Source: a virus
Taxonomy: Duplodnaviria > Heunggongvirae > Uroviricota > Caudoviricetes
Length of the DNA stretch: 42,306 nt
Virus record (IMG/VR): IMGVR_UViG_2617271049_000012
Strand: one strand, 5' to 3'
The notes beneath the pieces are model-generated. The model worked only from the letters and a program-made list of their open reading frames with translations. It had not been told where the DNA came from and made no database searches. Below are positions 3,633 to 5,087 of the stretch, piece after piece. Positions within the stretch are counted from its first letter, which is position 1. Every line of letters starts with the position of its first letter. Both the position numbers and the translations under genes were made by a program.

Positions 3633-4121
3633 ATGGCTATTCAAATCTCAGTTGAAACTCTTTCCCCGATCACCCATAACCAAATCCCTGTCATTACTAC
3701 CGAGCTTTTGGCACAACTTTATGGCACCGAAACTAATAACATCAAAGTGAACTATACACGCAATGCCGAGCGTTTTGTTTGTGGGAAACACTACTTCAAA
3801 TTGGAAGGGGCTGAGTTGCGGGAATTTAAGAACAAGGTTACTCAAAGTAACTTAGTTGCACCGCGTACAAAGCACCTCATCCTCTGGACAGAACGCGGAG
3901 CAGCCCGTCACGCCAAAATGCTGGAAACCGATCAGGCGTGGGAAGTGTTCGAAAAACTGGAAGACTGTTATTTCAGCCAAAAACAACCACCAGCAGCACA
4001 AAACACCCCAACCCAAAATGATGGATGCGCATTACTGATCCACTTCGATAAACACGGTCAGGTCGACTTCACGGAAAAACTACCCGCCGATGCGATGGTA
4101 TGCACTCTGGAACGGTTTTAA
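3633..4121 (+). CDS. ORF6N-domain phage protein (KilA-N/antirepressor-like)
   Basis: N-terminal region (ITTELLAQLYGTETNNIKVNYTRNAERFVCGKHYFKLEGAELREFKN...LILWTERGAARHAKML) matches the ORF6N pattern from recollection. Confidence 0.6.
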   Translation: MAIQISVETLSPITHNQIPVITTELLAQLYGTETNNIKVNYTRNAERFVCGKHYFKLEGAELREFKNKVTQSNLVAPRTKHLILWTERGAARHAKMLETDQAWEVFEKLEDCYFSQKQPPAAQNTPTQNDGCALLIHFDKHGQVDFTEKLPADAMVCTLERF

Positions 4122-4343
4122 AAATTTTCCCCGAACGCTTTACGATCGTAAAAAGTTGAATATCCTGTTAAGAGTGGTTACTACGCCAAACAGCTTAAAC
4201 CCGCCACTGAGCGGGTTTTTTATGCCTGAAAAACGGTACAGGACGTTAAACGCGCTGGTGGTTGCGAATACTGGTCTTTCGGCTTGTATTTTTGTAAATC
4301 GATATATACTTATCTTGTGACCAGTAATGTCAGGGCAATTGAT

Positions 4344-5087
4344 ATGAATGAAGCTTGTTCTGTTGTTTTTGTTCATTCCCCGTTTGTTGTGCTCTTTGAA
4401 GGAAAAGAGCTCTCTCTGGAAAGTGGTAGTGCACTTCTTGTCAGGGGGGGAGCTGGATCGTTATTGCCCTTTTCGGAATGTTTTCGGCGAATAAGTCTCA
4501 GTGAATCGACAATTATCCGTTACCTGTTGTGTGGAGACGAAAAACAGGATGTAGTTTTAGTCCGGCAAATACCACGATATCTTTGCGTGAGTTTTCCCAA
4601 GGCAGAATTGATGGGCATCCTGATTGATTATCTTTGTGAGGAAAAGATTCATACGGACAATTTAGCGGAAATGCTTTCCTTTTCGTGTCTGGCGTTTTTC
4701 TCATCAGAGAAAATGTTTTCGTCGTTTCTGACCGCGTGTATTGGCAATATTAGTGACAGGCTTAGTGCATTGTTTCGTACGGACATTGCAGCAAACTGGA
4801 CTCTGAGAGATGTGTCTTCGCGGTTATGTATCAGTGAAAGTTTGTTAAAAAAAAGACTGAAAGAAGAAGGCACCTGTTTCAGTGAGTTGTTGCTTACAGA
4901 GAGAATGAGAATGGCAGCAATGCTGTTGAATCAATCTCGTTGCGCCATCAACAGAATCGCTGCTCAGTGTGGCTATAATTTTACATCTTATTTTATCAGC
5001 GTATTCAGGAGTTATTTTGGTGTTACACCGGCAGGTTACAGGATGGCTGCATTCAATGAGATGAGTTTAAGTGTTACTCAAGAATAA
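4344..5087 (+). CDS. AraC-family transcriptional regulator
   Basis: C-terminal dual-HTH AraC signature (TLRDVSSRLCISESLLKKRLKEEG...NRIAAQCGYNFTSYFISVFRSYFGVTPAGYR); AT-rich coding region; ATG at 4344 in frame with upstream TTG at 4284. Confidence 0.8.
   Translation: MNEACSVVFVHSPFVVLFEGKELSLESGSALLVRGGAGSLLPFSECFRRISLSESTIIRYLLCGDEKQDVVLVRQIPRYLCVSFPKAELMGILIDYLCEEKIHTDNLAEMLSFSCLAFFSSEKMFSSFLTACIGNISDRLSALFRTDIAANWTLRDVSSRLCISESLLKKRLKEEGTCFSELLLTERMRMAAMLLNQSRCAINRIAAQCGYNFTSYFISVFRSYFGVTPAGYRMAAFNEMSLSVTQE

Follow-up and report, generated by a model that had tools for sequence, protein, structure and literature searches.

The interval between the antiterminator gene Q and the lysis genes of an Escherichia coli lambdoid prophage carries a gene for an AraC/XylS-family regulator (hereafter the AraC gene). 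The prophage lies on a 42,306-nucleotide (nt) stretch of DNA, virus record IMGVR_UViG_2617271049_000012, which we call the window. The AraC gene is genuine, intact and conserved cargo of atypical base composition, and it occupies the slot equivalent to that of stx in Shiga toxin (Stx) phages. We think it probable that the interval is made up of two cassettes, an antirepressor module and the AraC gene, with the latter leading the late transcription unit and acting on the host. The gene and the two landmarks that frame its interval are as follows.

2976 to 3359, plus strand: Q antiterminator, PF06530 (QuuD/Q933 type), 127 amino acids from the start chosen by the Prokaryotic Genome Annotation Pipeline (PGAP); the open reading frame (ORF) opens with GTG at 2964
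4344 to 5087, plus strand: AraC/XylS-family regulator gene, 247 amino acids, of the YdeO/GadW/AppY/PatE/Psr clade
5267 to 6474, plus strand: lysis cassette, from Pfam and from the PGAP annotation of an identical prophage

An initial annotation of this DNA had called an AT-rich AraC-family gene at 4344-5087, and both parts of that call hold. The ORF read from 4284 or 4344 to 5087 matched the Pfam helix-turn-helix (HTH) families HTH_18 and HTH_AraC with E~1e-13 (HTH_18 at residues 178-253 of the 267-residue ORF, E=1.4e-13; HTH_AraC in two stretches), and PGAP annotates the same 744-nt coding sequence from ATG 4344 in identical prophages. Guanine-cytosine (GC) content is 0.39-0.44 across the gene, versus 0.48-0.54 on the upstream, Q side and 0.55-0.58 at the holin. 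The suggested kinship to prophage regulators of enterohemorrhagic E. coli (EHEC) was likewise borne out by BLASTP, and it extends over the full length of the protein. Identity was 39% to PatE (ECs0287), 36.5% to YdeO, 36% to GadW, 35% to PsrA (ECs1087, corrected start) and 30% to AppY, in alignments that span residues 1-232 with E=1e-36 to 1e-50. Homology reaches the N terminus, where a cysteine in an xCSV motif (C5) is invariant in a nine-protein alignment of the clade.

The C-terminal DNA-binding domain places the protein in the AraC/XylS family both by Pfam and by superposition of a structural model. The closest solved structure by sequence is the DNA-binding domain of GadX, and the C-terminal domain of an AlphaFold model superposed on GadX 3mkl with a root-mean-square deviation (rmsd) of 1.0 Å and a template modeling (TM) score of 0.91-0.93. 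The clade alignment shows hardly any variation in the recognition helices, SESLLKKxLK and SYFxxxF, whose residues include a lysine that appears to match AppY K170; the AppY K170E variant is the negative-control file in AppY chromatin immunoprecipitation sequencing (PMC10057817). Matches of the full-length model to Rns, CsvR and ToxT (TM 0.40, rmsd about 15 Å) were set aside as uninformative on ligand binding. As judged from its sequence, the gene is intact and its product is a two-domain activator belonging to the YdeO/GadW/AppY/PatE/Psr clade.

Within this clade the gene stands apart. Its best NCBIfam model was YdeO (NF007407), with a score of 146.9 bits that falls far under the 348-bit equivalog cutoff, so the protein is a paralogue of YdeO and not YdeO itself. 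Identities of 35-39% to PatE, GadW, YdeO and PsrA make the gene a separate subfamily, with alleles of its own at 75-86% identity, and are too low for an orthologue of PsrA/PsrB or PatE. Prophage cargo of this kind is known already, and within it the AraC gene represents a new, uncharacterised lineage, whose product very probably works like YdeO, PatE and PsrA.

Comparison with the characterised members shows what is shared and what is not. PatE (Z0321/ECs0287, from Sakai Sp1; also in phage mEp332) is the closest characterised homologue found, and both proteins have 247 residues. This protein, the product of a prophage moron, activates both gadE and hdeA (PMC10877973). The patE gene lies at the distal prophage end, after tail-fibre genes, whereas the window gene lies in the late leader. 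PsrA and PsrB, which are 90% identical to each other, belong to the same AraC/XylS clade and can be aligned with the window regulator over its full length; like it, they are carried only on lambdoid prophages. AppY (from DLP12), YdeO, GadW and GadX share the two-domain architecture and have near-identical recognition helices (identity 30-36%). YdeO, GadW and GadX are encoded by core-chromosome genes, and the appY gene is found at the far end of DLP12. The members of the YdeO/GadW clade that prophages carry (AppY, PatE, PsrA and PsrB) feed into host acid-resistance and virulence networks; the AraC gene adds an uncharacterised fifth lineage, in the same hot spot as psrA and stx, that moves between prophages of differing Q type.

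The AraC gene was present in 65 of 5,426 complete E. coli genomes and was always chromosomal. Alleles of at least 98% identity accounted for 42 of the 65, mostly from cattle, buffalo, mutton, beef, manure or farm sources. The other 23 genomes carried alleles of 90-95% identity, all those listed being at 91.6%; most of the listed isolates came from Sus scrofa and included porcine enterotoxigenic E. coli (ETEC) and one O139:H1 strain. Allele class thus tracks isolate source, ruminant or farm versus pig, as a descriptive pattern only. The 1.9 kb from 3360 to 5300 match, along the whole stretch and at 99.7-99.9% identity, prophages in the chromosomes of 12 complete E. coli genomes, which are mostly of cattle or farm origin (for example, mastitis strain 1303). 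The ORF is full length in most of the 65 genomes, including alleles down to 75% identity, and pairwise ratios of nonsynonymous to synonymous substitution (dN/dS) among five alleles were 0.22-0.39, with dS up to 0.59. The gene is under purifying selection. It is neither a fragment of a host chromosomal gene nor confined to one prophage, being conserved in 65 complete genomes behind four Q types.

In the phage collection searched, this allele occurred in no phage genome; the best matches were paralogues of 37-40% identity. Phage-borne members of the YdeO/PatE clade include a paralogue next to bof and darB in the P1-like phage vB_EcoM-Ro157c2YLVW, another between Q and S, after blc and ybgA-like genes, in the infant-gut Lambda_ev group, and PatE itself (99% identical) after the tail-fibre genes of mEp332. 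The loci of phage-borne regulators of this clade are L011 2577-3299, L004 3989-4720 and L003 3992-4744.

In every context examined, the AraC gene was the first after Q. It stands behind a PF06530 Q in the window, UTAK-5 and L019, behind a 273-residue PF03589 Q in SA31-1, STEC308 and L015, behind a 250-residue YdfT-like Q in ETEC1730 and L017, and behind a DUF1133 Q in strain 08-00022. The gene on its 3' side varies: the holin follows directly, or methyltransferase genes, tRNA-Gly, or TerB and DUF3927 genes come next. The gene has two features of a moron in the Hendrix/Juhala sense: it is extra DNA, found in 65 of 5,426 genomes, in a slot where DLP12, Sp5/PA28 and Sp4 have either nothing or different cargo, and its base composition (0.39-0.44) differs from that of its neighbours (0.48-0.58).

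That this slot corresponds to the one used by stx, as the initial annotation proposed, is supported by gene order. Stx phages carry stx in the interval from Q to the lysis genes (Q, tRNAs, stx2AB in PA28 and Sakai Sp5), and psrA lies likewise in Sakai Sp4, where the order is DUF968, RusA, Q, CAAX gene, pR'-like element, ECs1086, psrA, tRNAs. Both stx and the AraC gene are cargo between the late promoter pR' and the lysis genes, a toxin in one case and a regulator here. The slot of psrA (ECs1087) matches in its parts, following a PF06530 Q, a pR'-like element, a hairpin and a 65-nt leader, and TW14359 has a Psr-like gene in the same slot. Downstream, psr genes are followed by the ileZ-argN-argO tRNAs, whereas the AraC gene is followed by terminator-like hairpins and the holin. 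The psr genes are reportedly linked to effector loci and pch. They occur in O157 EHEC, whereas most isolates with the window gene come from cattle, other ruminants and pigs, with some strains named Shiga toxin-producing E. coli (STEC) or ETEC among them.

The initial annotation had placed pR' and its terminator tR' directly after Q and had taken the ORF6N gene that follows for a moron downstream of tR'. An ORF6N-type ORF is present at 3633-4121 (162 residues; Pfam ORF6N E=1.2e-21). The pR'- and tR'-like elements at 3364-3393 and 3454-3475 proved to be parts of an isrK/c4-a1b1/C4 module, and the ORF6N gene to be a truncated antirepressor gene with its own predicted promoter, lying between Q and pR'. 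The elements of the module are the following.

3364 to 3393, plus strand: predicted module promoter TTGACC-18 nt-TATATT, from a promoter scan, 10/12 matches
3387 to 3439, plus strand: a1/b1 targets of C4 RNA (c4-a1b1), Rfam RF03163, 52.2 bits against a gathering threshold of 46.7
3400 to 3474, plus strand: IsrK-like short RNA, Rfam RF01394, 79.4 bits against a gathering threshold of 50
3454 to 3469 plus a T-run (to 3475), plus strand: predicted terminator of the IsrK-like RNA, from a terminator scan; fold z = -2.4
3497 to 3582, plus strand: C4-type antisense RNA, RF01695, 74 bits against a gathering threshold of 45, full model length
3587 to 3593, plus strand: first site of the a2/b2 target pair, TTGGCGT, 100% complementary to the C4 segment 3554-3560
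3617 to 3625, plus strand: second site of the a2/b2 target pair, GAAAAAGGA, 100% complementary to the C4 segment 3539-3547
3633 to 4121, plus strand: ORF6N antirepressor gene, 3'-truncated, 162 of about 186 amino acids

The promoter of this module starts 5 nt past the Q stop codon. Its -35, 18-nt spacer and -10 also precede the module in PA28, where it lies in the nin region, and in L025, where it lies at the far end of unrelated prophages with no Q gene near; the flanks are otherwise unrelated. The Rfam matches and the recurrence of the same module at the PA28 and L025 sites assign the pR'/tR'-like elements after Q to the antirepressor module. C4 RNA and a1/b1 elements are both present, and an a2/b2 pair covers the ribosome-binding site, with the target at 3617-3625 overlapping the ORF6N Shine-Dalgarno sequence AAGGA, 7 nt 5' of ATG 3633. 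We read 3364-4128 as an antirepressor module of the P1 immI/Gifsy-1 IsrK type on the strength of these elements. P1/P7 immI (c4-icd-ant) and Gifsy-1 isrK-orf45-anrP have the same succession of promoter, a1/b1, C4, a2/b2 over a ribosome-binding site and antirepressor. The window module differs from them in having no identified leader ORF like icd or orf45, in a2/b2 targets that lie over the antirepressor's own Shine-Dalgarno sequence, in an antirepressor that is truncated and of ORF6N type, and in its position between Q and pR'.

The antirepressor itself is shortened, having 162 residues versus 184-195 in its family. Its nearest relatives, 96% identical and widespread in E. coli, Salmonella and E. 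albertii, extend beyond residue 162 by 24 near-invariant residues (KFYLEQHGWIVARKEQLVERLMRF) that the window protein does not have. DNA homology to an intact copy stops near 4128, and PGAP calls the gene a pseudogene that lacks its C terminus. In strain UTAK-5 an insertion sequence (IS), IS66, splits the ORF6N gene, and the AraC gene is still intact. The truncated antirepressor is probably inactive, and the RNA part of the module looks intact.

The likely pR' lies behind the module and was located by homology to Stx2 phages. Its elements are listed below.

4139 to 4196, plus strand: pR' homologue and early transcribed region, by homology to Stx2 phage PA28/Sp5
4139 to 4144, plus strand: putative pR' -35, TTTACG
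4161 to 4166, plus strand: putative pR' -10, TATCCT
about A4173, plus strand: predicted pR' start site, with conserved TAAGAGTGGTTAC in the early transcribed region

Positions 4139-4221 share 81% identity, across 83 nt, with the final codons of Q and the DNA downstream in PA28/Sp5. Differential RNA sequencing and Term-seq in Sakai Sp5 place the pR' start 258 nt upstream of the tR' 3' end (PMC7547250). The Sp5 start thereby falls 7 nt after TATCAT, and TTTACG stands 16 nt upstream of TATCAT. An earlier guess at pR', with -35 TTGAAT and -10 TACTAC (4156-4184), was ruled out by this distance; TACTAC may be a -10-like pause element. By homology, then, pR' would be 4139-4173.

The same element is present in every PF06530-Q prophage examined (DLP12, Sp4, Sp5, L019 and the window), at a variable distance from Q. 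It adjoins Q in Sp5 and follows nmpC in DLP12, the CAAX-protease gene in Sp4, a secreted-looking 135-residue ORF in L019 and the c4-ant module in the window. The pR'-like elements span 4139-4196 in the window, 13190-13280 in L007, 18132-18286 in L012 and 2871-2960 in L019; in prophages with other Q types, the DNA is unrelated up to the hairpin. We dropped a reading of TTTACGATCGTAA (4139-4151) as a remnant of the Q 3' end. Because the element stands apart from Q in DLP12, Sp4 and L019, it is better read as a -35 region that the longer Q933 ORF has entered. An Rfam Trp_leader match at 4151-4224 (E=0.24, under the gathering threshold) was put down to chance.

Placing pR' at 4139-4173 puts the ORF6N module in the gap between Q and pR' and leaves the AraC gene as the sole gene from pR' to the holin. 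A predicted Q-cognate late promoter and terminator upstream of the lysis genes give the interval the layout of a lambdoid late operon. The gap between Q and pR', which can amount to 0.5-3 kb in QuuD/Q933-type prophages, constitutes a cargo slot distinct from the one between pR' and the lysis genes; DLP12 has the porin gene nmpC there, Sp4 its CAAX protease gene and the window the c4-ant module. A promoter and terminator pair directly after Q is thus not to be assumed to be pR'/tR'.

The DNA between pR' and the holin contains several further elements.

4197 to 4226, plus strand: hairpin and U-run at about +25 to +54, the first element in the late leader to resemble a terminator
4222 to 4286, plus strand: conserved 65-nt non-coding leader segment, directly 3' of the first hairpin
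4283 to 4316, plus strand: conserved promoter-like block CTTGTATTTTTGTAAATCGATATATACTTATCTT, 34 nt, consensus CTTGyATTTTTGTAAAkyGATATATACTTATCTT
4305 to 4310, plus strand: candidate -10, TATACT, within the promoter-like block
5105 to 5137, core 5112 to 5131 (hairpin and T-run 5112 to 5136), plus strand: terminator-like hairpin and T6, directly after the AraC stop
5227 to 5252, plus strand: second terminator-like hairpin and T-run, from the terminator scan, -10.8 kcal/mol, 15 nt before the holin ATG

The first hairpin (-13.9 kcal/mol, z = -2.6) lies about 150 nt 5' of every AraC copy, behind four Q types, and its stem shows compensatory changes, CCCGC/GCGGG versus CCTGTC/GACAGG in L020. Transcripts from the pR' of Stx phages run through the homologous hairpin as far as +258 (PMC7547250). 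The promoter-like block is near-invariant across six alleles whose coding dS reaches 0.59, and is more conserved than synonymous sites. Downstream, the initial annotation had assigned the gene a terminator of its own: a hairpin and T-run is present at 5227-5252, and a nearer terminator-like hairpin stands at 5112-5136. The latter folds at -15.6 kcal/mol with z only -1.2, so that shuffled sequence does as well. In L019, too, a hairpin and T-run resembling it lies 3' of the AraC gene. The promoter and terminator scan missed the hairpins at 4197 and 5112, and both were judged by folding and comparison. More than 1000 complete E. coli genomes have the first hairpin and the 65-nt leader segment behind it, the segment at 83-97% identity and in DNA that bears no annotation; in O157:H7 the hairpin and this segment lie upstream of Psr-like genes (psr loci).

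We infer promoters, terminator efficiency, expression in the lysogen and targets as follows. In the lysogen, the AraC gene would be transcribed from its own promoter-like block, by constitutive pR' read-through past the first hairpin, or by both. Transcription would end at the hairpins at 5112-5136 and 5227-5252, which on this proposal keeps the holin silent in the lysogen. The AraC protein would act on host promoters, the likeliest targets being gadE and hdeA of the acid-fitness island, since PatE, PsrA, PsrB and AppY act on these genes and the recognition helices are common to the clade. These four regulators activate gadE and/or hdeA (PMC10877973; PMC10057817), and control of acid-fitness island promoters is common to all characterised clade members. 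After induction, Q-modified polymerase would pass all of the terminators, so that the AraC and lysis genes are co-expressed. If the protein does control acid resistance or colonisation, the gene would become a candidate for host adaptation in livestock E. coli, some strains named STEC and ETEC among them.

Several observations weigh against this account. Disrupted copies occur in a few genomes (a split gene in K_EC180; split annotations in C3 and C7), so the gene is dispensable in some backgrounds. The portal gene of the window prophage is interrupted, which makes its lytic competence doubtful, and this AraC copy may therefore sit in a phage that no longer completes a lytic cycle. The fraction of Stx-phage transcripts that pass the homologous hairpin is not reported (PMC7547250). 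The candidate AraC promoter has a good -10 but a poor -35 or a 15-nt spacer, and a scan for consensus promoters returned no site upstream of the gene; over the whole region that scan gave 1 site versus a shuffle mean of 2.9, so that it is no evidence alone. The AlphaFold2 model, built on an eight-sequence alignment, has a mean predicted local distance difference test score of 64.9, with an unreliable N-terminal domain and linker. Given this low-confidence N-terminal model and only 30-39% identity to characterised regulators, targets and ligand may differ from theirs.

A more far-reaching version of the two-cassette reading is possible, and we advance it tentatively. In it, the regulator would be a livestock-gut adaptation factor encoded in the leader of the constitutive late promoter, where the StxS sRNA is encoded in Stx phages, and its level would report prophage state. 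Expression in the lysogen would come from partial read-through at the first hairpin, Q would boost it on induction, and the hairpin pair after the AraC gene would be the true barrier guarding the lysis genes. Carriers would be mainly cattle, other ruminant and pig E. coli, with acid-resistance or colonisation genes rewired. The C4 and IsrK-like RNAs beside the dead antirepressor could act in trans on ant leaders, their targets being the near-identical leaders of co-resident or incoming Stx phages.

It is unlikely that the AraC protein instead serves the phage, regulating lysis timing, late genes or phage exclusion and being made only after induction as the first Q-antiterminated product. Such a role would suit a gene within the late transcription unit directly after pR', which the conserved hairpin at 4197-4226 could silence in the lysogen, and prophage-encoded transcription factors mostly appear to regulate prophage genes (AppY paper, PMC10057817). 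Yet the cassette has been exchanged among prophages whose Q genes fall into four unrelated types and whose endolysins are of at least two (GH108 and M15), and most relatives, such as DLP12, Sp5 and lambda-like phages, lack the gene, which implies that it is not part of a fixed phage circuit. Its AT-richness, conserved upstream block and terminator-like hairpins suit an autonomously expressed moron, and all characterised members of the clade act on host genes.

It is less likely still that the ORF6N and AraC genes are decaying cargo, functionless relics of recombination in a defective prophage. There are signs of decay around them: the truncated ORF6N gene and the IS inserted there in UTAK-5, the portal gene split by a 10.8-kb insertion, IS elements within the E. 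coli 1303 copy, and some split AraC copies. Against these stand the full-length AraC ORF in most of the 65 genomes, dN/dS values of 0.22-0.39, an upstream block more conserved than synonymous sites, and an AraC gene that is intact even where the adjoining ORF6N gene is destroyed. Least probable is that the truncated ORF6N protein is still a working antirepressor and that 3364-3393 and 3454-3475 are pR' and tR' after all: the ORF6N domain itself is intact, and the site 5 nt past the Q stop is the region's best sigma-70 match with a terminator after it, but the same promoter, terminator and RNAs precede ant elsewhere (in the Stx-phage nin region and at Q-less prophage ends), the elements score as isrK, c4-a1b1 and C4 over Rfam gathering thresholds, the element common to this Q type is 4139-4196, whose Stx-phage homologue has an experimentally mapped start, and the 24 lost residues are almost invariant in the family.

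The genes around the interval are arranged as is usual for a lambdoid prophage. Q itself (Pfam Phage_antitermQ E=2.5e-52) is 81% identical to QuuD and to the Q of the PA28 Stx2 phage and 84% identical to that of Sp4, and departs from the Q933-type sequence after LEMDRYVER. Genes upstream of Q and within the lysis cassette are as follows.

1550 to 2599: DUF968 gene, upstream of RusA
2612 to 2983: RusA gene, upstream of Q
5267 to 5659, plus strand: holin PF16931, first lysis gene
5649 to 5927, plus strand: holin PF05449, second holin
5929 to 6474, plus strand: GH108 endolysin, end of the lysis cassette

Beyond the lysis genes come bor and a DUF1398 gene on the minus strand, then Nu1 and the large terminase subunit. 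At the other end, an XRE-family HTH protein (1-360) runs off the window start, and a 160-residue ORF next to it (window 1-846) has a HEIGH motif and is ImmA/IrrE-like by eye.

The interrupted portal gene is of the lambda family. Its N-terminal part lies at 11116-11982 (Pfam profile positions 2-242 of 354) and its C-terminal part at 22638-23492 (profile 235-353), split by an insertion of about 10.8 kb at about 11936-22734 that contains the following genes.

12060 to 13373: tyrosine integrase
13692 to 14270: Bro-N protein
16736 to 18151: AAA_25 protein
19487 to 20542: Phage_cap_E-like capsid gene
21621 to 22223: second Nu1-like small terminase

This insertion looks like an integrative phage satellite, resembling a phage-inducible chromosomal island. 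A 19-bp direct repeat, GTATTGCAATGTGTATTGC, stands at 12062 and again at 22635; the reading frame of the portal gene picks up again around GCGCCAT(T/G)TATG. Near the window end, after the tail-fibre region, 42096-42266 matches Rfam IS009 (RF02111) with 163 bits, over the gathering threshold.

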